Shown: piece by piece, positions 1-12,873 of the stretch
Position numbering within the stretch: position 1 is the stretch's first letter
Layout of the letters: every line of letters starts with the position of its first letter
Virus genome (UHGV): UHGV-1356053
Strand: one strand, 5' to 3'
Length of the DNA stretch: 14,087 nucleotides
Source: a virus
Program-made: the position numbers and the translations under genes
The notes under the pieces: model-generated
Seen by the model: only the letters and a program-made list of their open reading frames with translations
What the model was told of the DNA's origin: nothing
Databases searched by the model: none

Positions 1-155
1 GGGCTGTTTTATGCTTCGCCTCTGATGACACTGACGCAAGAATGGCAATAGGCCAAGAGGTGGAGATGGACCCGACAAACGATGAATTCATAATTTATGG
101 CGCTCCATCTAATTACTTACTTGATACCTGCAACATTTACAACAAGGCTGCCTGA
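1..155 (+). CDS. Possible 3' end of an upstream early-left gene (partial, start outside window)
   Basis: One frame is open from position 3 to TGA at 153-155 (50 codons, ...DEFIIYGAPSNYLLDTCNIYNKAA*), followed by a T-run at 163-171. Weak: a 50-codon open frame can occur by chance. Confidence 0.25.
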   Translation, partial: AVLCFASDDTDARMAIGQEVEMDPTNDEFIIYGAPSNYLLDTCNIYNKAA

Positions 156-214
156 TGGTGGCCTTTATTTTTTAGCCGTAAATAATTTCATGCTTATTAC
201 AATCAAGGTGATAT

Positions 215-580
215 ATGGAAGAACAAGCAAACAAGATTCTCGTAGAACTACTGCAAAAAGCCAGCAATGGAATGGACGCGGCTGTTTCATTTAGCCAGGC
301 ACAGATTCCTGATGTCATCCATCAGCTTTTGATGTGGCACGCCGTATCATCAGCTGGAATTCAGGCTATCTGTGTATTGGTGATTATAGCGTGTGTTTAT
401 CTGATGATTTTTGCATGGAATAAAGGAGATGATGCAGATATTGTTCTTTTATCACTACTTGTTACATCAGGAATAGCGATTACTTCTATTGTTGTTTTCT
501 TCAATTATTTCGACTGGCTGAAAATTTGGCTTGCTCCAAAACTTTACCTTATCGAATATGCAGCATCATTGGTTAAGTAA
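215..580 (+). CDS. Hypothetical small membrane protein, 121 aa, two predicted C-terminal transmembrane helices
   Basis: ATG at 215 with AAGGTG 4 nt upstream; hydrophobic stretches GIQAICVLVIIACVYLMIFAW and IVLLSLLVTSGIAITSIVVFF; intrinsic terminator directly downstream. Confidence 0.7.
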   Translation: MEEQANKILVELLQKASNGMDAAVSFSQAQIPDVIHQLLMWHAVSSAGIQAICVLVIIACVYLMIFAWNKGDDADIVLLSLLVTSGIAITSIVVFFNYFDWLKIWLAPKLYLIEYAASLVK

Positions 581-584
581 TTTC

Positions 585-610
585 AGGACGCATAGTCGTC
601 CTTTATTTTT
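585..610 (+). terminator. Rho-independent terminator candidate
   Basis: AGGACG (585-590), 6-nt loop CATAGT, CGTCCT (597-602), then TTTATTTTT. Confidence 0.6.
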
Positions 611-639
611 AGCATAAACAACAGAATAAACACTGCACT

Positions 640-667
640 GTGTATTCATTCCAACGAGTGAATACAC
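640..667 (+). repeat. Perfect 9-bp inverted repeat (hairpin) in the cIII leader
   Basis: GTGTATTCA (640-648), 10-nt spacer, TGAATACAC (659-667). Confidence 0.6.
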
Positions 668-729
668 GGAGCAATGTCGCTCGTAACTAAACAGGAGCCG
701 ACTTGTTCTGATTATTGGAAATCTTCTTT

Positions 730-757
730 GCCCTCCAGTGTGAGGGCGATTTTTTAT
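730..757 (+). terminator. Rho-independent terminator candidate upstream of cIII
   Basis: GCCCTC (730-735), loop CAGTGT, GAGGGC (742-747), then GATTTTTTAT. Confidence 0.55.
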
Positions 758-819
758 GCATACCAATAACGCTTCACTCGAGGCGTTTTCGTTATGCAAT
801 CAAACAGAAGGAGTTACCC

Positions 820-954
820 ATGATGCACTTTCAGTTAGCGGGTAGCGGCGTCATGTCCGCTTTCTACCCGCACGAATCTGAATTATCACGCCGAGTTAAA
901 CAATTAATCAGAGCAGCAAAGAAACAACTGGAGGCGTTATGCGCAATGAAATAG
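820..954 (+). CDS. cIII: CIII-like protein (FtsH inhibitor family), 44 aa
   Basis: ATG 820 with AGAAGGAG 6 nt upstream; MMHFQLAGSGVMSAFYPHESELSRRVKQLIRAAKKQLEALCAMK resembles the conserved amphipathic core of lambda CIII (..AG..V....ES.L.R....L...) as recalled; sits upstream of kil as in lambda/P22. Confidence 0.6.
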   Translation: MMHFQLAGSGVMSAFYPHESELSRRVKQLIRAAKKQLEALCAMK

Positions 955-1091
955 CCATCAATCACCAGATGCTTCGTGCTGCACAGAACAAAGCAGTAAT
1001 AGCCAGATTTATTGGTGATTCAAAAATGTGGCTTGAAGCAAATAAAGCGATGAAATCAGCTATCAACCTTCCGTTGTATCGCAGGAAATGA
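939..1091 (+). CDS. kil: Kil-like small protein (host cell-division inhibitor family), 50 aa
   Basis: Below the ORF-track size cut-off. ATG 939 overlaps the cIII 3' end in another frame. MRNEIAINHQMLRAAQNKAVIARFIGDSKMWLEANKAMKSAINLPLYRRK shares the IA.FIGD.KM..EA motif with lambda Kil as recalled. Confidence 0.55.
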   Translation: MRNEIAINHQMLRAAQNKAVIARFIGDSKMWLEANKAMKSAINLPLYRRK

Positions 1092-1166
1092 GTTTTACAG
1101 ATAACTGGTCAGACGAAGAATTCATTCGTCAGATGAAAGATTTAATCGGTAACGAAGGAGATATTC

Positions 1167-1337
1167 ATGTCACTTGCAACCACAGTGAAGGAGAGCAAGT
1201 TACAGAGACGCATGTACACGCAGCAGGCGTTAATGTATCGCCAGAAGGGAGATCGTGAAGGTGTTCGCGTATTTTTAAATGCGGCAAAGACTGAAGTATT
1301 AAATCAGCGTTATTTCCTTGGGCCATGTCCATTCTGA
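1167..1337 (+). CDS. Hypothetical small basic protein, 56 aa, in the position of P22 arf
   Basis: ATG 1167 preceded by AAGGAG with 6-nt spacing; ends 8 nt before the annealing-protein start. An overlapping alternative frame (1088-1258) is also open. Confidence 0.4.
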   Translation: MSLATTVKESKLQRRMYTQQALMYRQKGDREGVRVFLNAAKTEVLNQRYFLGPCPF

Positions 1338-1345
1338 GGTGAATT

Positions 1346-2053
1346 ATGGATTTGAATAAATTCGATGAGCCATTCAGCCCTGAAGATATCGAATGGCGAA
1401 TACAGCAAAGCGGTAAAACACGCGATGGAAAGGTGTGGGCTATGGTGCTGGCTTATGTCACGAACAGGGCAATCATGAAACGCCTGGACGATGTTTGCGG
1501 CAAAGCAGGATGGCGCAATGAATACCGCGATATTCCCAACAACGGCGGCGTTGAATGCGGCATATCAATCAGGATTGATTCCGAATGGGTAACCAAATGG
1601 GATGCTGCTGAAAACACGCAGGTAGAAGCCGTCAAAGGTGGTCGTTCAGGTGCAATGAAGCGTGCTGCCGTTCAGTGGGGAATCGGTCGGTATCTGTATA
1701 ACCTTGAGGAAGGTTTCGCACAAACATCTCTCGATAAAAAGCATGGGTGGCACAGGGCAAAACTGAAGGATGGAACAGGATTTTACTGGCTCCCTCCATC
1801 GCTGCCGGGATGGGCAATCCCAGCATCAGATAACAAACCATCACCAGAAAATACCAACCAGAAATCTCCATCGGTTGACTGCGAACAAATCCTGAAAGAC
1901 TTCAGCGATTATGCGTCAACAGAAACTGACAAGAAAAAACTCATCGAGCGTTATCAGCGTGACTGGCAATTAATGGCTGGCAACGAGGAAGCGCAGGCTA
2001 AATGCGTTCAGGTAATGAACATCAGAGTTAACGAACTAAAACAGGCGGCATAA
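1346..2053 (+). CDS. Single-strand annealing protein, Rad52/Sak-type recombinase (235 aa)
   Basis: Pattern pEDIewR...GkvwamvlaYVtnRaimkRLddvcGkaGW...AMKRAAVQWGIGRYLY fits the Rad52 N-terminal annealing fold; no Walker A motif; sits in the erf/bet position directly upstream of ssb. Confidence 0.85.
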   Translation: MDLNKFDEPFSPEDIEWRIQQSGKTRDGKVWAMVLAYVTNRAIMKRLDDVCGKAGWRNEYRDIPNNGGVECGISIRIDSEWVTKWDAAENTQVEAVKGGRSGAMKRAAVQWGIGRYLYNLEEGFAQTSLDKKHGWHRAKLKDGTGFYWLPPSLPGWAIPASDNKPSPENTNQKSPSVDCEQILKDFSDYASTETDKKKLIERYQRDWQLMAGNEEAQAKCVQVMNIRVNELKQAA

Positions 2054-2560
2054 ATGGCAAGCAGAGGCGTAAATAAGGTGATTATCCTTGGTCGGGTAGG
2101 ACAAGACCCGGAAGTTCGATACTCACCATCAGGAACAGCGTTCGCTAACCTGACAATAGCCACGTCAGAACAATGGCGAGATAAAAATACTGGCGAGCAA
2201 AAGGAATTGACTGAATGGCATCGTGTTGCTGTATCCGGGAAACTGGCTGAGGTCGTGGGGCAGTATGTAAAAAAAGGTGATCAGATTTATTTCGAGGGAA
2301 TGCTGAGAACCAGAAAGTGGAAAGACCAGTCAGGGCAAGACCGTTACACAACCGAGGTTCATGTCGGAATTAATGGCGTGATGCAAATGCTTGGCGGCAT
2401 TGGCGACAGCAAACAACAAGCAGCCAGCAGGCAATCACAGAAGCCACAGCAGCAATCATCACCAGCACAACACAACGAACCTCCGATGGATTTTGACGAC
2501 GATATACCCTTTGCACCAGTAACTCTCCCCTTCCCTCGTCACGCTATTCACGCAATTTAA
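2054..2560 (+). CDS. ssb: Single-stranded DNA-binding protein (168 aa)
   Basis: [23 protein letters not shown]...TEWHRV...[12 protein letters not shown]... with Gln/Pro-rich linker and canonical acidic tail MDFDDDIPF; start abuts the preceding stop (TAA-ATG). Confidence 0.95.
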
Positions 2561-2573
2561 TCAGGAGAAAAAC

Positions 2574-2870
2574 ATGCCAGCGCCTCTGTATGGTGCGGAC
2601 GACGCACGCCGCTGTTCCGGCAATTCCGTATCGGAGGTGCTGGATAAATTCAGAAAAAACTACGACCTGATAATGTCGCTACCGCAGGAAACGAAAAAGG
2701 AAAAGGAATTTCGCCATTGTATATGGCTTGCAGAGAAAGAAGAACGCGATCGAATTTACCAGACATCAATCCGACCATTCCGCAAAGCCACATATACCCA
2801 CTTCCCTGAATATATCGACCCGCGCCTGCGTAATTACCGCTCACGCTATGGCGCTATCAGTAATGACTGA
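2574..2870 (+). CDS. Hypothetical protein, 98 aa; positionally equivalent to P22 abc (anti-RecBCD) genes, function unverified
   Basis: ATG 2574 with AGGAG 6 nt upstream; basic, Arg/Lys-rich; directly follows the annealing protein and ssb. Confidence 0.75.
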
Positions 2871-2880
2871 GGAATTTACC

Positions 2881-3045
2881 ATGAGAGGACTTGCATACAA
2901 TCCCGGCATTCTTCCGGCAGAAATGATTATTCGCCAACGCGTAAAGCCAATGCCATCGAGAGAGGAATTGCTTAAGAGAAATAGTTTCGGTTCTGTTAAT
3001 GACAACAAATATCTGAATGCAATGTGGCGGAGTGGGAAGAAATGA
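2881..3045 (+). CDS. Hypothetical small protein, 54 aa
   Basis: ATG 2881 with GAGGAA upstream; its stop overlaps the next start (ATGA at 3042-3045), suggesting translational coupling. Confidence 0.45.
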
Positions 3046-3548
3046 AACAAATGTCACTAATTGAGATGGATGGTTTTCTGAAAGGTAAATTCTTCCCACG
3101 AGATTTAAAGGTTAACGAAACAAACGCTGAATATCTTGTCCGTAAGTTCGGTGAACTTGAATCAAAACTGGAAACGGCGTTGCGTGAGTGTCGTTCTGCT
3201 GGAATCACGATTGATAACCTTGAGGCCAAGTGCGCTGCGCTGGCAGCAGAGAATGCGGGGATGAAGAAGTTCTGCAAAGACGATGCATTCGATGCCGATT
3301 ACGAAGCAGAGCTAGGTATGGAGCGTGGTGGATTCAGTGATGCGCTTAACGAAATCAAAACCCCAGCCACCGATGCTTTTCTGGCTGAAGTACGGGCGCA
3401 GGGGGTAGAGATGTACGCAGATAACCTCGACAACGGAGCAGACGACGCAGAACGAGGTGGTTTTGATTATGCCGTTAAGTTTCTACGCAGTGAAGCGTCT
3501 AGTGTACGTTTGTTCGCCGACCAGCTTCGCAAAGGAGGCAACCAGTGA
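3042..3548 (+). CDS. Ea22-like coiled-coil protein (168 aa)
   Basis: ATG 3042 with GGGAAGA upstream (the track's GTG 3024 would overlap the previous gene); acidic helical sequence; stop overlaps the next start (GTGA at 3545-3548). Confidence 0.75.
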
Positions 3549-3997
3549 GCAAGATTGACTATCAGGCACTGCGTGCTAAGGCAGAAAAAGCAACGTGTGG
3601 CGAGTGGTCGCTCGAATATGGAGAGGGCCGATTTGATGGTGATGATGCGCTAATTCATCGCGAGGCTGCTGGATATATTCCCATTTGCAGAATTGAAGGA
3701 GCGCATCCTGAAAGCGGTTTCGATGAAGATTTCCAAATAGAACAGCAGGCCAATGCTGAATTCATCGCCGCAGCCAATCCAGCTACCGTGCTGGCGCTGC
3801 TGGATGAGCTGGAAGCCAAAGACAAGCGGATTGCTGACATGGAGGCGCGGGAGGTTGTACTGCCGCGTGCGCACGATGTTCACCCATTAGGGCCGCAGTC
3901 GGCGAAAATTTTTTGTGAGTTTCACCGGAGTATCGTGAACAGATGCGCCGATGAGATTCGCAAGGTTGGCGTCAAAGTCAGCATCAAGGGGAATTAG
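3545..3997 (+). CDS. Ead/Ea22-like protein (150 aa)
   Basis: GTG start with AAGGAGG 9 nt upstream; contains ...NAEFIAAANPATVLALLDELEA... which I recognise as the conserved Ead/Ea22 motif of lambdoid ea-region proteins. Confidence 0.8.
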   Translation: MSKIDYQALRAKAEKATCGEWSLEYGEGRFDGDDALIHREAAGYIPICRIEGAHPESGFDEDFQIEQQANAEFIAAANPATVLALLDELEAKDKRIADMEAREVVLPRAHDVHPLGPQSAKIFCEFHRSIVNRCADEIRKVGVKVSIKGN

Positions 3998-4001
3998 GGA
4001 T

Positions 4002-4598
4002 ATGGCTGAACTAACCAAAGAATGGCTGAAGCAAACTATCGCTGAATACGAAGCCAATCGTGATGAATTACCGTTTGGACTGGATACCAACAGTGCCATT
4101 GAGCTTCAGGCGTTCAAGTTGGCGCTGGCATCGCTGGAAGCAGATCCAGTTGCTTATATTTTCAAACATCCGGCCGGGAAATTATTCTGGGCTTTAACGG
4201 ATGAAAGCAATAAAGAGCAATCGGACGTTATTCCTGTTTATGCCGCCCCTCCAGTGCCAGTAGTACCTGAAGAAAAACCAATGCCTAACCCTCTTAAAAT
4301 GTACGCGGTTGATGCTGTTGCCGCTATTGAAGAGGTGAGAGGCTGGAACGCCTGTCGTGCCGCTATGCTTCAGAGTCAAGGTAATTGCATTAAGGATGGT
4401 TGGATAAGCTGTAGTGATCGAATGCCGGAAGACACCAAAATGTTACTGGCATTTAGTCAAGGTGAAATCGTGGCCGCATATTGGAACTGGGTTGTAAATC
4501 CAATTGATTACAAAAAATATAGAGCTTTCACGTATTTATCAGGAAATATCTTGGATGACGTAACTCACTGGATGCCGCTACCAGAGCCTCCACTTTGA
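4002..4598 (+). CDS. DUF551-type C-terminal domain protein (198 aa)
   Basis: ATG 4002 (MAELTKEWLKQ) with GGGA upstream; C-terminus GWISCSDRMPED...AAYWNW...HWMPLPEPPL matches the DUF551 signature as recalled. Confidence 0.8.
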   Translation: MAELTKEWLKQTIAEYEANRDELPFGLDTNSAIELQAFKLALASLEADPVAYIFKHPAGKLFWALTDESNKEQSDVIPVYAAPPVPVVPEEKPMPNPLKMYAVDAVAAIEEVRGWNACRAAMLQSQGNCIKDGWISCSDRMPEDTKMLLAFSQGEIVAAYWNWVVNPIDYKKYRAFTYLSGNILDDVTHWMPLPEPPL

Positions 4599-4694
4599 AA
4601 GCGAAGCTTATACATATCTTTTACATCAGCAATCTATTGTTAATCTCCAATCAATGTTACGTTGTCATCTCACTCATGCTTTGGAGGTAGTGAT

Positions 4695-4874
4695 ATGTCT
4701 TGTCCAAAATGCGGTTGTGGAAATATTGCAAAAGAAAAAACAATGCGTGGATGGTCTGGTGATTATGTGTGCTGCGATTGCGGATACAACGACTCTAAAG
4801 ACGCATTTGGAGAGCGTGGTAAAAACGAGTTTGTCAAAATTAATAAAGATCGCGAAGGCAACGGAAAAAGCTAA
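4695..4874 (+). CDS. Small zinc-ribbon protein (59 aa, two CxxC-type pairs)
   Basis: ATG 4695 with GGAGG 7 nt upstream; MSCPKCGCGNIAKEKTMRGWSGDYVCCDCGYND... Confidence 0.6.
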   Translation: MSCPKCGCGNIAKEKTMRGWSGDYVCCDCGYNDSKDAFGERGKNEFVKINKDREGNGKS

Positions 4875-4939
4875 TTTATTATTCATATATGAAAACAATG
4901 TAACCAATATTCGAATTGAAGAACTGAAAGAACACCAAG

Positions 4940-4960
4940 CCGCCTGATGGCGGTTTTTTT
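4940..4960 (+). terminator. Rho-independent terminator
   Basis: CCGCC (4940-4944), loop TGAT, GGCGG (4949-4953), then seven T (4954-4960). Confidence 0.7.
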
Positions 4961-4974
4961 ATTGGAGACAAGAA

Positions 4975-5319
4975 ATGTCAGATTTGGCTATGAAGGTTTT
5001 GAAATGGCAATCAACTGGCGATGTTGGCATCAGTAGCGCAACTCTTGCCTCAATCGCATGTGGGCTGAAAAAGAATATCTATGGTCATCACTTCGGCGCT
5101 CCCCATGACGCAGCAGACTTTCGGCGATGCGTTGCACTTGTTGAGCAGATTCCAGAAATCAGAGATTCATTCGACAAGGTTGCAAAGCGCGTTCCGGCAT
5201 TCAAAGGAATCCTCAACGAATGGGATTCACTCGTTGCTCTGTTGAAGTCTGAAATGAAGATACACGGAAACAAAGCACCAGAGACTTACAGAAGAATCAG
5301 CGAGCTACGCAAGGACTAA
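4975..5319 (+). CDS. Hypothetical protein, 114 aa
   Basis: ATG 4975 with GGAGA 6 nt upstream, immediately after the 4940-4960 terminator; no recognisable motif. Confidence 0.75.
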   Translation: MSDLAMKVLKWQSTGDVGISSATLASIACGLKKNIYGHHFGAPHDAADFRRCVALVEQIPEIRDSFDKVAKRVPAFKGILNEWDSLVALLKSEMKIHGNKAPETYRRISELRKD

Positions 5320-5406
5320 CCCGCCTCACACTCGATGAGGCCTGTACATTTCTCAAGATATCCAGACCTACCGCAATCATGTCAATCCAATAAATGGAGA
5401 TTCCAG

Positions 5407-5754
5407 GTGGAAGAAGAAATCTTCACTCGTGAAGAAGCTGCGTCGTATCTGAAGGTAGACAAAGGCACTATCACACAGTGGATACGAAGTGGACGACTTC
5501 AGGCCGCAAAGATAAATCCAGATAAACCTAAAAGTCCATATCGCATTTGCAAGTCAGACTGCATTGCGGCGCTTAAGTCTGTGAGACACAATAGCGCGGT
5601 GAATGCGGTTGATGTGCAGGAGGTTAAAGCATGTCAATCAAACTACGCGGTGGCACGTGGCACTGCGATTTCGTCGCGCCAGATGGATCAAGAGTTAGAC
5701 GCTCTCTTGAAACATCGGACAAAAGGCAAGCGCAAGAACTTCACGATCGTCTGA
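5407..5754 (+). CDS. xis: Excisionase (helix-turn-helix Xis family), 115 aa
   Basis: GTG 5407 with GGAGA 6 nt upstream is the best-supported start (the track's ATG 5335 has no RBS); FTREEAASYLKVDKGTITQWIRSGRLQAAKI is an excisionase-type HTH; 3' end overlaps the int start by 124 nt in another frame. Confidence 0.65.
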   Translation: MEEEIFTREEAASYLKVDKGTITQWIRSGRLQAAKINPDKPKSPYRICKSDCIAALKSVRHNSAVNAVDVQEVKACQSNYAVARGTAISSRQMDQELDALLKHRTKGKRKNFTIV

Positions 5755-6791
5755 AAGCAGAAGCGTGGAGAGTAAAAAATCTCGGGGAATCACCGAAAAA
5801 GCTATTCAAGGAAGCCTGCATACGGTGGCTGCGTGAGAAATCGGATAAGAAGTCCATTGATGATGACAAGAGCATTATATCGTTCTGGATGTTGCACTTC
5901 AGAGAAGCCATTCTCTCTGACATAACAACAGAAAAAATAATGGAGGCGGTAGACGGGATGGAAAACCGCCGCCATCGCCTGAACTGGGAGATGAGCCGGG
6001 ACAGGTGTTTGCGACTTGGCAATCCGGTGCCGGAGTATAAACCAAAGCTGGCAAGCAAAGGAACGAAGACGAGGCATCTGGCAATACTTCGCGCCATTCT
6101 CAATATGGCTGTTGAATGGGGATGGCTTGACAGGGCACCCAAAATATCAACACCACGCGTTAAGAATGGACGCATCAGATGGCTTACAGAGGAGGAATCG
6201 AAGCGCCTGTTTGCAGAAATTGCTCCTCACTTCTTCCCTGTGGTCATGTTTGCAATCACGACAGGCCTTCGCCGTTCCAACGTTACAGACCTTGAGTGGT
6301 CACAGGTCGATCTGGATAAGAAAATGGCATGGATGCACCCTGATGAAACAAAAGCTGGCAATGCGATCGGAGTTCCTCTTAACGAAACCGCATGCCAGAT
6401 ATTAAGAAAACAGCAGGGGCTCCATAAGAGATGGGTATTTGTCCACACCAAACCTGCCTACCGAAGCGACGGAACAAAAACAGCAGCGGTAAGGAAGATG
6501 AGAACCGACAGCAACAAGGCATGGAAGGGAGCGTTAAAGCGGGCAGGCATTAGCAACTTCCGCTTCCATGACCTGAGGCATACCTGGGCAAGCTGGCTGG
6601 TTCAGTCCGGTGTCTCTCTTCTTGCACTTAAAGAGATGGGAGGATGGGAAACTCTCGAAATGGTTCAAAGATACGCCCACCTTTCAGCCGGGCATCTCAC
6701 CGAGCACGCGAGCAAAATCGATGCGATTATAAGTCGCAATGGCACAAATACGGCACAAGAGGAGAACGTAGTTTACTTAAATGTGAGGTAA
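5631..6791 (+). CDS. int: Tyrosine integrase, P22 Int type (386 aa)
   Basis: AGGAGG upstream of ATG 5631; resembles P22 Int throughout as recalled (KRQAQELHDRLKAEAWRV, TGLRRSN, FRFHDLRHTWASWLVQ, GGWE..EMVQRYAHL with the catalytic R..HxxR..Y pattern); ends 15 bp from the att core. Confidence 0.97.
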   Translation: MSIKLRGGTWHCDFVAPDGSRVRRSLETSDKRQAQELHDRLKAEAWRVKNLGESPKKLFKEACIRWLREKSDKKSIDDDKSIISFWMLHFREAILSDITTEKIMEAVDGMENRRHRLNWEMSRDRCLRLGNPVPEYKPKLASKGTKTRHLAILRAILNMAVEWGWLDRAPKISTPRVKNGRIRWLTEEESKRLFAEIAPHFFPVVMFAITTGLRRSNVTDLEWSQVDLDKKMAWMHPDETKAGNAIGVPLNETACQILRKQQGLHKRWVFVHTKPAYRSDGTKTAAVRKMRTDSNKAWKGALKRAGISNFRFHDLRHTWASWLVQSGVSLLALKEMGGWETLEMVQRYAHLSAGHLTEHASKIDAIISRNGTNTAQEENVVYLNVR

Positions 6792-6805
6792 CTTATTGAT
6801 TTAAA

Positions 6806-6851
6806 TGGTGCCGATAATAGGAGTCGAACCTACGACCTTCGCATTACGAAT
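6806..6851 (-). other. attP core: 46-bp copy of the 3' part of tRNA-Thr(CGU) (thrW-type target); not a complete tRNA gene
   Basis: Minus strand reads ATTCGTAATGCGAAGGTCGTAGGTTCGACTCCTATTATCGGCACCA: anticodon-loop 3' half, T-arm GGTTCGACTCC, acceptor 3' strand and CCA. The sequence 5' of it (GGTGCTACAG) does not continue the tRNA, so only the att-core part is present. Confidence 0.85.
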
Positions 6852-6910
6852 CTGTAGCACCAATCATAACTATCTGTTTTAGCAAGCATTAACCGCATTC
6901 ACCAAGCAAT

Positions 6911-7046
6911 AGTTGATGGCACAAACAGAAAGTTGATGCATGATGTTGTCATGTGTATGTCACAAATACGGCACAACGATCTTCAAACATGTAGCCACTC
7001 AGCATAGAAGAGCACAAAGCCTTGCAATCCAGTGCAAAGCTTTGTG
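6911..7046. repeat. Short repeats in the attP arm; candidate arm-type Int/IHF sites and a hairpin
   Basis: AGTTGATG twice (6911-6918, 6931-6938); sCACAA(A/C) four times (6918-6927, 6959-6969, 6970-6979, 7010-7020); inverted repeat CACAAAGC (7013-7020) / GCTTTGTG (7039-7046) followed by T-rich sequence. Confidence 0.4.
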
Positions 7047-7082
7047 TGTCTCAGTTTTGTTTCATCGGTAATTATGTGTTCG

Positions 7083-7382
7083 CTACGATGCAAGAATCCA
7101 TACCAATAAGCATCCGATAATTGGGAAAGAAAAATCCAACAGACTTCCCACATCCCACACGCGTGGATCAAAACCTCCCCACCACGGCATGTTGATGCGT
7201 TTCCCTTTCCCAAACTTTTCTATCCAGCGATATTCTGCCTGGGTGTGTTCACGCGCAATGAAGAACGTACAACCGGCTATCGCACCGTAAGCCCAGTTTC
7301 CGGTAGAAAGGCCAACCAGTACCTGAGCCGCAAAAGCGCAAAGCGAGTGAAGAAATGGAGTGACATCAATGCTCTTAATCAT
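7083..7382 (-). CDS. Hypothetical small membrane protein (99 aa), translationally coupled to the tailspike
   Basis: Its ATG (7382-7380) overlaps the tailspike stop (ATGA); hydrophobic segments [30 protein letters not shown] and [16 protein letters not shown]; occupies the tailspike-to-attP slot where P22 and Sf6 carry gtrABC or oac. Confidence 0.65.
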
Positions 7383-9436
7383 GAAACTTCCCCATTGGTT
7401 GAAAATATGGCTCCTCCAACGCCAAGTGTATTTCGTGTTGCGCTCAACCTCAGAGGGCTGGAGTCAGAATTAGAATATCCTGTAGCAGAAATAAAAGATC
7501 CTCCACTAATAGTCAACTGCGGAACATCGGCTATATCTGAATAAGTTCTGTCAGCAACAGTATTATTTATAGCCACATGTGATCCAAAAAAACTTCTTAT
7601 TGTTTGGTTTTTAACTTTACTTCCTTCAATGGTTATCCTACTACCACAGTCGGCAATAAATCCTGAATCTGCATCCAGCGTTGCATTCATAAAAGAAGCT
7701 TCAGATCTCTCTACATCAATCCATCTAATATCTTTTGTGGGATTTGCACCAAATACATGACAAATATTAGAGTTAAACCTTACTCCATCTTGGAGGTGCA
7801 TTAATTTTTTTATATCTGTACCCCATAGCCTTGGAAAATTAACAGATGCTCCTGCATGGCAATCAAATCCCAGCTCAGCCCCTGAGATATCTACAGCCTT
7901 TCCTGAAATAACAGCGCCAGTGTCTGCATTAACGGCTGTTCCACAATTGCGCATATCATTACCAGCAACATCAACACAACCCGCACCATCAATACGCACA
8001 CCAAGCGCACATCCATAAAAACCTTTTTCAATATTTGGTTCAAGGACTTTACCACTTGTTTCTGCATCACTTTCTTCAACGTCATGTCGTCTTGCATCAA
8101 CATATGCTGTATGAATGCAGGTTAATCCACGATATGAGCAGTGTATAGTTTTATGGTCGCGTATATTAACATTTGAACCATCTCTTACATTCCACCCCAT
8201 ATAACAATAGCTTGCACTTGACCCCTGAAAATCTGCTTTAACATTATAAATACAATTAACTGACGCAACCGTACTCTCTGTGCACCGTTCAAACTTGCTT
8301 ACAGGCATTGATGCCTTGACATTATTTACCAGTTGCAGGGAAGAGTATCTGCTATAAGAAAAATCACATACGTAATACCCTTCTGGCATATATGCAGCAA
8401 CACTTTCCTCATCAGGAGCACATCCGGTATGATATGCACTAATTTTTGCACCAAAGCTACCATGAATTCCAACGTAGAACTTTCGAGCACCTGAATACGG
8501 ATAGAAATTAAGTTCAGCTTTTTGAGTTACAATAAATGCACAAACATCGCTATCATCTCTATTTTCTTCAATCTGAATAGCAAATACAGGACTTTTTGCT
8601 GCATCGCAAATGTAAAATAAATATTTGTATTCGTAATACGTCCTAACAGTTTTAGTAAACAAACTGGTATCAGAGAAAACCACTGAGTCTTCTGATATTA
8701 TTTTAATCCATGATAAGTCACATCCTGCTGAAATTTCTATTTGCTCATTGAGCACAAAACCGGAAAGAATTTTAATTATGCAAAAATCAATGCCATTTTT
8801 CCATAGTGGACGCAGTGCAACAGCTGAGTTTAGAGCATCACTAATAGATTTAAAATTACCATATTCCCCAACTGTTATTGTGAATGCATACCTGGAATTA
8901 AATACTGCGGCACTCTCTCCAGAGTTAATAGCTGCAGATATCATGTCATAATTTGATATAAAATCATTTGGCGTGATTATTTCTGCGTTTTTATTGTGCT
9001 GTGTTCTAAGTTTTGAATTTACATGAACACTTTTAACTGCAATACGGGAGTCGTCAACAAGTATTTCATTACCCTCTGTTGCTAACTCTTGTCTTAACTG
9101 ATCCGGGTCATACTTCAGCACATTCGGAAAATAGAACTGCTGCACACCGTACGCATCATAAACAGCCATAGAATGGCCCTGTACAGTAACGAATTTGGCA
9201 ATCTGTCCGTTATATACAGGGTAACCAGCAGCGTTAATGATGATTGGTTGCGAAACAGGAACGTGAGAACCGTCTTCGTTTTCCACATAAACCTGAATCT
9301 GGTTTTCAGGATTTACCGGGTCAGTGTCAATTTTCCCGATATAAATTTTGCCATTGGCTACGGCTTTAAAAGAACGCGCCATAGTGAAGAGTTGCGAAGG
9401 CATACTCACTACAACATTGGCTGTAATGTCTGTCAT
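7379..9436 (-). CDS. Tailspike protein: P22/Sf6-type N-terminal head-binding domain plus divergent receptor-binding (putative depolymerase) body, 685 aa
   Basis: N-terminal ~115 aa ([46 protein letters not shown]...NVLKYDPDQ) match the podovirus tailspike head-binding domain as recalled; the rest is Gly/Asn/Ser/Val/Cys-rich repetitive sequence compatible with a beta-helix; GGAG 8 nt upstream of the ATG. Confidence 0.95.
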
Positions 9437-9582: not shown

Positions 9583-9834
9583 ATGGGAAGAGATGACCCG
9601 CAATTTAATCTGCGGCTACCTTACGAATTAAAGGAAAAACTAAAACAGCGAGCCAAATCCAATGGCCGCTCTCTTAATTCAGAATTAGTTCAGATAGTGA
9701 CTGATGCTGTATCAAAGCCATCCAAAATTTCAGGCTATCGAGACGATGCGGAACGCATCGCTGATGAGCAGTCAGAGCTTGTTAAGAAGATGGTGTTTGA
9801 TACGCTGAAGGATTTGTACAAAAAACCCACCTGA
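9583..9834 (+). CDS. mnt: Mnt-type ribbon-helix-helix repressor (83 aa)
   Basis: MGRDDPQFNLRLPYELKEKLKQRAKSNGRSLNSELVQIVTDAVSKPSKISGYRDDAERIADEQSELVKKMVFDTLKDLYKKPT matches P22 Mnt along its whole length as recalled, including the C-terminal ADEQSELVKKMVFDTLKDLYKK. Confidence 0.93.
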   Translation: MGRDDPQFNLRLPYELKEKLKQRAKSNGRSLNSELVQIVTDAVSKPSKISGYRDDAERIADEQSELVKKMVFDTLKDLYKKPT

Positions 9835-11025: not shown

Positions 11026-12873
11026 TTATTGCTGTTCTGCTGTAATTTGGCTTGAAAGTATAGGGCGTATCGCATTTGCAGCATTATTTAGCGCTCTTTC
11101 ATAGGCTGGTGTTCCTGCTTTGGTGTTTGCCAAACGTAAGAGAGCATTCCTTGCTGCTTTTGACTCATACAAGCGCATCATTGCACCGAAACCAGCCTCA
11201 AGCCCCATTGATACGCCAAGAGTCGCAGTTGCGCCAATCGTCCTTATCCTGTTGGCTTGCGATTGCCCCGTCTGAGTTACTACATTTGCGGTGTCTGACC
11301 TTGCTGTTTGCTGTAGAACTTCATGAAGAGAATCAAGCTCTTTCATGTGCTTTCCAGAAAAAATAGTGTTGTAAATTTCACCGCCTGACTGAGATTTCAG
11401 CTTATTAACTTCAGTGATGAACTTGGCTGGAGAGTCACCGGCCTTTTCCGCTATTTTGCTGACATAAGCTGCACGCATAGCATCTTTCCCTTTATTATCC
11501 AATGCGCTCCAGATTCGTTTCACGTCAGATGGTTTTCTGCTTAATACAACGGTATTTATAAGTTCAGGACTGGCTTCACTGCTTGCCTTGTTGAGCTTGT
11601 TAGCAATGTTTTTATTAAGCACCTTATTATAAACGTTTGCATAATCGGAATTTGCTTTAAGGTATTTTGCTGCGTCTGATGCACCGAGGTTTTTTGCAAC
11701 TGCGTTACGAAGATCTTTTGACATTGCATTCTCTACCATATTGGTAGCTGCTTTTGCCTGGTTTGGGAAGACCATAGCATCTCCCTGAACATTAGATCTA
11801 AATGCTGTTCTGTGCTGACGCAAGAGATCAAACGTAACATCCAAATCAGTTGCAGGGTTTGCTAATTCTTCACGTAGGTTACGCAAGGATGTAAGCAGGC
11901 TTTGATTGGCAGACGTCCCAAGCCGTTCCTGTCTTGCGATCGCTGTATTCAGAGCATTCATGGTATTTGTGGTATCAACTGCGGCATTACCCATTTTATT
12001 GGTGACGTCATTGATAACAGCGCCAGCGGCATCCTTCCGCCCCCTTAACGTGGTGGTAAGAGATTTCACCACATCATCAGGGTTGTACTCACCAAAACGG
12101 TCAAAATAATTACTTACCAGCTTACTACGCGTTGCATATTGCTCCGCTCGCTTTGAGCCTGTCCCGAGCAAAGCCCCCTCGGCATCCTGAGTTAGGCCGC
12201 GAGTGAAAGCATTTTTCGGCGGGATAACATCAGATGTCATTGGTGTCACGCCCATCGATTCTGATGTGGCAATTTTCTTCGCCACTTCTGGCGCAATATC
12301 ACCTTTTATAGCCGTTATTCCACGCCCTATTCCCTTTGCTGCTGCGGAAAGAACCCCCTGAGCGGCAAGGTTAACTCCGGCATTTTTAGCTGCATTTTGT
12401 GCGAAATCGCCTTTCTGATTTGCGGCCTCTGCCAGTGATCCAATAGCCATGCTTCCTGCCGTTCCAACTCCTGGAACTAAATACCCGCCAATTGTTTCTC
12501 CAGCTTGCGCATAAGGGTCTGTTGGTCGATCGACTGGACGATAGACATCGTCCAAAACCTTGGGGCCACCAAGCCCCTGGCTGATTGCATTAATCAGACT
12601 TGCGCCGCCCTGCAATACGTCAAATGGTATGTTTACCAGACCACGACCAGCCTGTTCCGCAATTTGCCCTGCACTTTGACCACCAGTGAGCCAATCGCCA
12701 GCTTGTTGCATCAATGATGGTTCTTCCCGTGTTGGTGCATTATTGGCCTGATTAACTGTTTGTTGCTGAACAGCCTGACCAGCAAAATACTCATCAATGG
12801 CGGTGCCAATATCTTCGGTGCTCGTACCATCAGGAAAGGTAAATATCTTACCGTTTGCAGTTACTTTCATCAT
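11026..12873 (-). CDS. Ejection (DNA-transfer) protein, P22 gp16-like by size and position (615 aa)
   Basis: Ala/Gly/Gln-rich soluble protein of the size expected for gp16, immediately upstream (in late-operon direction) of the sieA/immI-position island and tailspike. The second ATG (12870) has the better-spaced GGTGG RBS. Confidence 0.8.

Follow-up and report, generated by a model that had tools for sequence, protein, structure and literature searches.

The 14,087-nucleotide stretch of DNA analyzed here (UHGV virus genome UHGV-1356053), which we refer to as the window, very probably belongs to a temperate coliphage that is P22-like (Lederbergvirus-type), with the genes in vegetative (circular) order, a lambda/P22-style attP, and a terminator-like hairpin in its distal arm. 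The attP is an ordinary, already catalogued thrW-type site of a P22-like temperate coliphage, and the int-attP module is the known thrW module of SfX, HK542, and mEp213, here joined to a P22-like tail module. Across the window, an early-left operon is followed by xis, int, and attP on the plus strand, and then by orf99, the tailspike gene, mnt, and gp16 on the opposite strand; all of the 14 kb was non-bacterial. The sole point that is modestly new concerns a conserved block of about 55 bp that contains the hairpin and had no prior annotation, the attP itself being already known. The features of the attP region and its flanking genes, with coordinates given in the window, are as follows.

5407 to 5754, plus strand: xis, excisionase, in its 115-aa reading (phrog_2907, E=1.5e-52; PF12728 HTH_17)
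5631 to 6791, plus strand: int, tyrosine integrase of the SfX/HK542 type, 386 aa (PF00589, E=9.5e-35; phrog_1)
6739 to 6758, plus strand: two tandem candidate Int arm-type sites in the int-proximal arm, ATGGCACAAA and ACGGCACAA (repeats, motif scan)
6789 to 6801, minus strand: match to the IHF consensus, AATCAATAAGTTA, with the proximal arm sites on one side and the core on the other (predicted)
6806 to 6851, minus strand (tRNA sense): common core of attP, a 46-nt sequence that matches the 3' part of tRNA-Thr thrW exactly
6911 to 6938, plus strand: two copies of AGTTGATG, 20 nt apart (starts at 6911 and 6931)
6916 to 6976, plus strand: three candidate Int arm-type sites in the int-distal arm, at 6916-6925, 6957-6966, and 6968-6976 (repeats, motif scan)
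7004 to 7065, both strands: conserved block of about 55 bp with a hairpin at 7013-7046 (A-tract, GC stem, and U-tract on both strands)
7083 to 7382, minus strand: orf99, small hydrophobic protein of 99 aa (phrog_1443, E=2.4e-53)
7379 to 9436, minus strand: tailspike gene, with a P22-type head-binding N-terminal domain (PF09008 Head_binding, E=2.1e-66; phrog_5662)

The list of open reading frames places the start of xis at 5335, and the gene calls in homologous prophages correspond to a protein of 115 aa. The xis and int genes overlap by 124 nt, as they do in P22, and int ends with a stop codon at 6789-6791. The Int protein is identical to P22 Int at 206 of 380 positions (54%), the HxxR motif and the tyrosine region RYAHL align between the two, and the int locus is 98% to 99% identical to the HK542, mEp213, and SfX modules. 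On the opposite strand, orf99 is the last gene of the late/tailspike unit, with a start that overlaps the stop of the tailspike gene, which it also accompanies in other prophages. A scan for sigma-70 promoters across positions 5000-7600 identified none.

The attP core starts 14 nt past the int stop codon, and its reverse complement, ATTCGTAATGCGAAGGTCGTAGGTTCGACTCCTATTATCGGCACCA, is identical at 46 of 46 positions to the last 46 nt of the E. coli thrW gene, so that integration regenerates the tRNA. This 46-mer is the published attP core of SfI, SfII, SfV, SfX, and P22 (PMC3636060). The identity to the tRNA ends at position 6852, where the window has a C and the tRNA a G. The window lacks the 5' part of the tRNA; ARAGORN identified no tRNA in the window, and an Rfam scan of positions 6600-7400 at E<=10 yielded only a sub-threshold tRNA match on the core. 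The P22 record contains an annotated core, and homology to it would place the strand-exchange region at about 6822-6844.

Comparisons with prophages showed the two halves of the site separately. Matches of the attL type cover positions 1 to 6851 and then break, whereas attR-type matches begin at 6801-6805 and run to 7082. Proteins identical to the Int protein are encoded next to thrW-proA in all 10 of the 10 long contigs that were inspected, and phage mEpX2 is known in 2 layouts, one being the virion order, in which attP is intact, and the other the prophage order, split at the position corresponding to 6851. A preliminary description of the region had stated that int ends just short of a 46-bp core which reproduces only the 3' part of a tRNA-Thr, and that phage genes rather than host DNA continue on the far side; both statements were borne out by the short gap after the stop codon, by the lack of a full tRNA, and by the presence of orf99 and the P22-type tailspike gene beyond the core. 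The comparison with thrW-type tRNA genes that it had proposed gave the identity described above, and its view that int and the tailspike gene converge on an intact attP, and not on an attL or attR, also holds. A partial tRNA beside an integrase gene, with phage genes on both sides, marks an attP, and shows both where the phage integrates, here at thrW, and how its map is oriented.

What the intact attP says about the source of the DNA is a separate matter, since the same description had taken it to imply free phage DNA rather than a prophage junction. That the site is such a junction, an attL or attR bordered on one side by host DNA, was refuted and retains next to no probability. A partial tRNA does superficially resemble an attR-type duplicate, but there are phage genes on both sides of the core (xis and int to the left, orf99 and the tailspike gene to the right), isolated phages have an attP arm that matches the right flank at 6852-7060, and the 5' part of the tRNA is missing. 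The implication of free phage DNA is probable, but an intact attP is not proof of it, since thrW tandem lysogens and hybrid prophage arrays give the same local picture, and the 14-kb window alone fits a phage genome and the interior of a tandem lysogen alike. If the window were the place where two thrW prophages of a tandem array meet, it would contain the int gene of the left copy, a regenerated attP, and the late genes of the right copy. Such an array is found in E. coli E10, a tandem double lysogen with 2 copies of one P22-like phage that have identical protein accessions; the copies are joined by an intact cognate attP, which matches positions 6700-7000 of the window at 99.7%, and the array ends with int, tRNA-Thr, and proA. 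Three further chromosomes also contain an intact cognate attP, and hybrid int-core-arm junctions were identified in E. coli 2452 and in dozens of other chromosomes. However, such cases are rare, with only 4 chromosomes that carry an intact cognate attP among 5,426 complete genomes, while all 18 of the 18 isolated-phage records with this arm have an attP that is intact or split only by the layout of the record. The lack of bacterial sequence in the 14 kb also argues against a tandem array, as does a Logan contig with an identical right half, which continues through the core into int without branching. We therefore regard the joint of a tandem lysogen as rather unlikely, and consider free, circular or virion DNA to be the likely source.

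The arms of the attP contain repeats that may serve integrase binding. The pattern AYGKCACAA, which was derived post hoc, occurs 5 times, always on the plus strand and always within 6739-6976, and nowhere else in the 14 kb, and none of 200 shuffles reached 5 copies. The 2 proximal copies fall inside the last codons of int. A 20-nt repeat connects 6739-6758 with 6957-6976, and an exact direct repeat of 16 nt flanks the core, with its distal copy at 6961-6976 (0 of 2,000 shuffles). At homologous positions, P22 and P22-like Int loci contain the sequence GTCCCA (twice in the proximal arm, and in P22 three times in the distal arm), which differs from the arm motif of the window at only one or two positions. 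The distal arm at 6852-7000 was nearly invariant among 20 distinct sequences, and it was present in 18 isolated-phage records, all with this type of Int. In hybrid junctions, a distal arm of the window type is joined to a P22-like Int with GTCCCA sites in the proximal arm, so that agreement between the arm motifs cannot serve as an absolute criterion.

Taken as sequence motifs, the CACAA-containing repeats are the best candidates for the Int arm-type sites. The case for them is stronger than in the preliminary description, which had named sCACAA motifs as candidate arm-type sites, given the 5 copies, but that description considered the far arm alone and missed the 2 sites at the 3' end of int. 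It had also put forward the AGTTGATG repeats, a suggestion that did not survive: 32 of 200 shuffled versions of the window contained at least 2 copies of AGTTGATG, so that the repeats do not differ statistically from chance, and the sequence does not match the arm-site motif. The repeats are invariant in related arms, as is most of the arm, and the conservation profile does not single them out; a role for them in Xis binding is only a guess. Two copies of TGTCTCA after the hairpin, comparable with the pair of TGTCCCA sequences in P22, were likewise considered and rejected, since the block in which they lie is also associated with the lambda-type Int, which has an unrelated arm motif; they can therefore not be arm sites in general.

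The IHF-consensus match AATCAATAAGTTA is the only exact match to WATCAANNNNTTR in the 14-kb window, and P22 has AATCAAATACTTA at the same place. Together, these features indicate a lambda/P22-style attP for a heterobivalent tyrosine integrase, which would use 2 int-proximal and 3 int-distal arm-type sites, with an IHF-type site beside the core and Xis encoded just upstream. The binding of Int, IHF, and Xis to the attP is predicted.

Beyond the distal arm sites, the hairpin at 7013-7046 consists of two 14-nt arms that are 93% complementary, with a loop of 6 nt. It is located 222 nt past the int stop codon, 162 nt past the core, and, on the minus strand, 36 nt after the stop codon of orf99. The predicted folds have energies of -20.7 kcal/mol on the plus strand and -22.5 kcal/mol on the minus strand, with z-scores of -2.7 and -4.25, respectively. 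A terminator scan called the hairpin on the minus strand, and on the plus strand it is the first terminator-like structure after int. The sequence UUUGUG follows the inner stem on both strands and, in a set of 84 variants, the left flank was 45% A and the right flank 45% T, while the stem pairs were kept in 90% to 100%.

A stem-loop with A- and U-tracts on both strands, placed at the 3' ends of transcription units, has the features of a bidirectional intrinsic terminator, and the block is a candidate for such a terminator between int and the tailspike-orf99 unit. The hairpin would most likely end the int-sense transcripts that cross attP as well as the convergent tailspike-orf99 transcripts, and integration would part it from int, as in lambda tI/sib. 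The earlier suggestion that it could terminate transcripts crossing attP is plausible. The U-tract is not continuous (UUUGUGUGUCUC), and the hairpins of lambda and 434 have no U-rich sequence behind them, so that the efficiency of termination may be low or differ between phages. Among 84 to 91 unique variants, analyzed on both strands, there were almost no compensatory changes in the stem, the element being too conserved, and wobble pairs favored the plus strand at some positions and the minus strand at others; the structure is therefore not proven by covariation. We also considered a CII/C1-type promoter on the minus strand of the hairpin (TTGC-N6-TTGC, a pattern annotated in the record of phage 434), which was rejected because no conserved -10 sequence follows and the downstream flank varies.

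The block, with the consensus CACAAAGCCTTGCAAtCCagTGCAAAGCTTTGTGTGTCtCagTTtTgTCTCA, is widespread, and was identified in 209 phage records, more than 120 IMG/VR contigs, and 1,869 of 5,426 E. coli genomes. Conservation of at least 90% extends over about 55 bp and gives way to complete divergence in both flanks, and 131 copies of the block displayed 96 different combinations of flanks. In 78 of the 88 loci with a recognizable int gene, the block was located downstream of int and in the int sense. Its distance to int is specific to the type of integrase: 12 to 31 nt for IntS, 137 nt for P22, 225 nt for SfX, and 307 to 413 nt for lambda and 434. It follows int in at least 4 unrelated lambdoid integration modules, namely those of IntS at argW, P22 at thrW, SfX at thrW, and lambda/434. 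There was no annotation of the block in the records inspected, and no match in Rfam. Literature searches with sequence strings gave no hits. We tentatively suggest that the portable block may be a shared element of the int 3' end that acts in termination, RNA stability, or processing, and perhaps also a patch of homology for module swapping, although this reading is a possibility rather than an expectation. If functional, it would add a common element to the regulation of int and to the exchange of integration modules.

Two other explanations of the hairpin were weighed, both of which we consider improbable. The preliminary description had compared it with a sib-like retroregulator, in which antiterminated read-through from PL would create an RNase III substrate, followed by 3'-to-5' decay of the int mRNA, and this from an intact attP only. 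The geometry is indeed that of lambda, in that, relative to int, the hairpin lies on the other side of attP, so that integration would unlink the two. The hairpin forms in the predicted fold of the int-sense RNA, the G-U wobbles in the outer stem of the P22-type variants work only on the int-sense strand, and the homologous hairpin in lambda is situated 30 nt from tI/sib. Yet there is no homology to the tI/sib hairpin itself, since the hairpin of the window aligns to a separate lambda hairpin at 27474-27509. Furthermore, the block in IntS-type modules, such as KplE1 in E. coli K-12, lies 12 to 31 nt past the int stop codon, and no att site separates them. In these modules the two always stay linked, and retroregulation can thus not be its general role. 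The stem of 14 to 15 bp also contains a conserved C.A mismatch on the plus strand, and a stem of this length with a mismatch is short for an RNase III substrate.

The block could instead be a non-functional relic or a recombination linker, that is, a leftover of the 3' end of an IntS-type int gene that is kept as homology for the exchange of integration modules. Consistent with this, it is located at mosaic break points (the homology to siphophages ends at 7060, and the homology to the podophage tail module begins at 7004-7011), a prophage at the lambda attB retains part of an IntS-like C-terminus immediately ahead of the block, and the flank combinations are numerous. However, the conservation of the block next to fully diverged flanks, the fixed orientation relative to int, and the maintained bias toward A-rich and T-rich flanks point to selection on a function. 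The roles of linker and terminator are not mutually exclusive, and the candidate terminator could also serve in module exchange.

The closest known systems include the SfX/HK542-type modules. The region 5631-7060 is 97.6% to 97.9% identical to HK542, HK446, mEp213, mEp043, mEpX2, HK75, and ECP1, and 97.3% identical to SfX. These modules have the same 46-bp thrW core, arm repeats, and hairpin, and attP is annotated at this place in several of the records. Most of the phages that carry them are lambda-like siphophages with HK97/HK022-like tails, whereas the window contains a P22-like module of tailspike, orf99, and ejection-protein genes, joined at about 7004-7060. The coverage of the window by any single phage record is at most 34%.

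P22 shares with the window an identical 46-bp core, an Int protein of 54% identity, the 124-nt overlap of xis and int, an IHF-consensus site by the core, and a homologous hairpin in the distal arm. It also has 2 proximal and 3 distal direct repeats, which we take to be the P22 arm sites. The arm motif is GTCCCA in P22 and G(G/T)CACAA in the window. Moreover, the P22 hairpin is located between the first and the second distal site, 77 nt from the core, whereas that of the window follows the third site, 165 nt from the core, and P22 has the gtrABC genes between attP and the tailspike gene.

Lambda shares the heterobivalent Int, arm-type sites in both arms, an IHF site, and Xis, as well as the transcription of int across attP toward a distal hairpin that is unlinked by integration. 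It differs in that the core is not a tRNA sequence, the arm motif is different, and the sites number 3 in the proximal and 2 in the distal arm. The window has no counterpart to the sib/tI hairpin of lambda, which we take to be that at 27539-27580. The same conserved hairpin block is nevertheless present in lambda, at 27474-27509, where it is unannotated and lies 30 nt beyond the U-run of tI/sib.

Finally, the KplE1 (CPS-53) prophage in E. coli K-12 also carries the block, placed right after intS and in the sense of that gene. IntS belongs to a different integrase family that acts at argW, and its gene is transcribed from attL inward. The block is thereby placed inside the prophage, between intS and yfdG (gtrA), where recombination never parts it from int.

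The gene order in the window is the vegetative order of a P22-like podophage, with the following features:

1346-2053, plus strand, Erf/Rad52-like annealing protein, early-left gene
2054-2560, plus strand, SSB, early-left gene
2574-2870, plus strand, Abc2, early-left gene
upstream of xis, plus strand, several early-left ORFs of the ea type
5407-5754, plus strand, xis, after the early-left genes and before int
5631-6791, plus strand, int, 386 amino acids, after xis
7083-7382, minus strand, orf99, hydrophobic ORF of 99 amino acids, phrog_1443
7379-9436, minus strand, tailspike of 685 amino acids with P22 head-binding domain
9583-9834, plus strand, mnt, between the genes for the tailspike and gp16
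11026-12873, minus strand, gp16 ejection protein

The minus-strand genes orf99, tailspike and gp16 converge with the plus-strand genes xis and int on one spot, in agreement with the preliminary description, which had int and tailspike converging on the core with phage genes on its far side: int and xis lie to the left, and orf99 and tailspike to the right. The small, strongly hydrophobic orf99, whose start overlaps the tailspike stop (ATGA), is the final gene ahead of attP, a slot frequently occupied by lysogenic-conversion genes.

The reverse complement of 6806-6851, ATTCGTAATGCGAAGGTCGTAGGTTCGACTCCTATTATCGGCACCA, is identical to the final 46 nucleotides of thrW in an E. coli chromosome, and also to the published 46-base core of attP, attL, and attR in SfI, SfII, SfV, SfX, and P22 (PMC3636060). 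The tRNA identity stops at 6852, a search of the window with ARAGORN gave no tRNA gene, and the core begins 14 nt beyond the int stop at 6791; it thus reproduces only the 3' part of tRNA-Thr close to the end of int, as first described. Judging from the homologous core annotation of P22, strand exchange should take place within about 6822-6844.

The segment 5631-7060 was 97.6% to 97.9% identical to the coliphages HK542, HK446, HK75, mEp213, mEp043, mEpX2, and ECP1, and 97.3% identical to the SfX int fragment. Several of these public records annotate attP at exactly the homologous place, and both the site and the module around it are thus known. The distal arm, to the right of the core (6852-7010), was present in 18 isolated-phage records, all with the same Int type.

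Natural recombination products were also identified. In many E. coli prophages, the match to the left side of the window stops precisely at 6851, where thrW-proA takes over, and the exact 386-residue Int adjoined thrW-proA in all 10 of the 10 long contigs read. Other loci have the attR form and match from 6801-6805 rightward. Of the two deposited forms of phage mEpX2, one has the virion gene order and an intact attP; the other is arranged as a prophage, where int, matching the window as far as 6851, occupies one end and the distal arm the opposite end.

A repeat search identified ATGGCACAAATACGGCACAA at 6739-6758, within the last int codons, ATGTCACAAATACGGCACAA at 6957-6976 on the distal arm, and a third copy, ATGGCACAAA, at 6916. 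Exact direct repeats of at least 14 nt are limited, in the 14 kb, to the 16-nt repeat that spans the core, which none of 2,000 shuffles of the region equalled. The pattern AYGKCACAA, derived post hoc, occurs five times in the window, always on the plus strand and between 6739 and 6976 (five copies in 0 of 200 shuffles). The sCACAA motif proposed earlier as a candidate arm-type site was therefore right, although the proximal copies in the 3' end of int had been missed. In contrast, the two copies of AGTTGATG, which had been listed as a repeated arm motif, were not significant relative to shuffles and fall outside the repeat; they lie on the distal arm with a spacing of 20 nt and, as a guess, might bind Xis. 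It was also noted that the bases at 6739-6758 double as codons for the C-terminal tail of Int (..NGTNTAQ..) and as candidate binding sites. An exact match to the IHF consensus occurs once in the window, as AATCAATAAGTTA (minus strand, 6789-6801), and is flanked by the proximal sites on one side and the core on the other. P22 Int is 54% identical to the Int of the window; P22 has AATCAAATACTTA where the window has the IHF match, and GTCCCA at the homologous arm positions, with three copies on the distal arm and a tandem pair in the 3' end of int. Two copies of GTCCCA also occupy the homologous proximal place in P22-like int genes of E. coli. The P22 attP reportedly has two proximal and three distal sites.

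The intact attP had been taken to imply free phage DNA, which mostly holds but does not follow by necessity. Among 5,426 complete E. coli genomes screened with a 301-nt probe covering both arms (6700-7000), an intact cognate attP was found in 6, four times in a chromosome and twice on a separate record (41 and 48 kb). In E. coli E10 (NZ_CM143887.1, 3823162-3908472), one P22-like phage is present at thrW as a complete double lysogen, in two tandem copies that have identical protein accessions and IS100 at the same position; the copies are joined by an intact attP with 99.7% identity to the probe, and the array ends with int-tRNA-Thr-proA. Hybrid junctions, in which a P22-like Int with proximal GTCCCA sites is followed by the thrW core and a distal arm of the SfX type, bearing G(G/T)CACAA, are widespread: they were seen in E. 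coli 2452 (L001, 19900-20300), in L043, L066, L087, and L108, and in E. coli chromosomes by the dozen; in E. coli 2452, orf95, tailspike, a second int, and thrW lie beyond the junction. The chromosome of 2023CK-01482 carries attL, and the intact attP is on another record, of 47.9 kb, which would fit a phage that has been excised as a circle. Because the arms of the window are cognate, and phage DNA extends across its entire length with nothing bacterial visible, its source is quite probably free, circular or virion DNA, and a joint of a tandem lysogen such as that in E10 is unlikely. Separately, in E. coli YZLc1-3 (L328, 3973430-3979707), the distal arm forms an attR-type junction whose other side, across the core, is a P4-like element with genes for an integrase, a HEPN protein, and psu; satellites and prophages thus also share thrW in mixed arrays.

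No phage record covered more than 34% of the window, which makes this phage a new mosaic of the known int-attP module and a P22-like tail module joined to it. Homology to siphophage int-attP modules ends at 7060, and homology to P22-like tail modules with other integration systems starts at 7004-7011. These break points coincide with a conserved block of about 55 bp, found at:

window, 7004-7065
lambda (J02459), 27474-27509 (L145, 702-737)
K-12 KplE1 (L329, 5001-5059)
P22 (L005, about 285-325, minus strand)

The block was present in 209 phage records, more than 120 IMG/VR contigs and 1,869 of the 5,426 E. coli genomes, with very diverse flanks, and is common to lambdoid phages whose integrases belong to four different families; none of the records inspected annotates it, and it had no Rfam match. 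Of 143 block loci, 88 had a recognisable integrase gene within 2.5 kb, which was upstream and on the same strand in 78. The distance from the int stop to the block was 12-31 nt for the IntS type, 137 for the P22 type, 225 for the SfX type, and 307-413 for the lambda/434 type. We consider this conserved element downstream of integrase genes a side observation worth a note.

Its hairpin (CACAAAGCCTTGCA/TGCAAAGCTTTGTG, 7013-7046) has 14-nt arms with one mismatch on the plus strand and a 6-nt loop, with folding z-scores of -2.7 (plus) and -4.25 (minus), and a terminator scan called it on the minus strand. On both strands, the inner 8-bp GC-containing stem is preceded by CACAAA and followed by UUUGUG, which by sequence is the A-tract/stem/U-tract architecture of a putative bidirectional intrinsic terminator. 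The composition of the flanks, with A at 45% in the left one and T at 45% in the right one, fits this reading, as does the 90% to 100% retention of stem pairs; stem covariation is too scarce to prove the structure or choose the strand. That the block serves as a recombination linker, or survives as a relic, we regard as less probable, although its position at the mosaic break points would fit, as would the arrangement in L007, a prophage at lambda attB, adjoining the bio genes. This prophage encodes the same 685-residue tailspike and uses a lambda-type att, and directly ahead of its block (L007, 11130-11240, minus-strand display) is a remnant of an IntS-type C-terminus (..MQWWADWLDEKV, then a stop), suggesting that the integration module was replaced in the past.

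The earlier proposal of a sib-like element or a terminator thus stands for the terminator architecture, on both strands; the hairpin is not that of lambda sib, the lambda copy being located 30 nt past the U-run of the tI/sib hairpin. The block also follows intS directly, with no intervening att site, and retroregulation is therefore not its common function; the simplest common denominator would be termination or 3'-end formation of int-sense transcripts. In the window, the block may also stop the convergent tailspike-orf99 unit, the orf99 stop codon being 36 nt away. In the phage 434 record OL657226 (L014, 3008-3031), a pattern-based annotation marks TTGC-N6-TTGC, on the minus strand of the hairpin, as a site for CII binding; no conserved -10 follows, and the match is probably a by-product of the palindrome. 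In K-12 KplE1 the block lies between intS and yfdG. The phage 434 copy is located past the terminator annotated there, and neither it nor the lambda copy has a U-rich tail.
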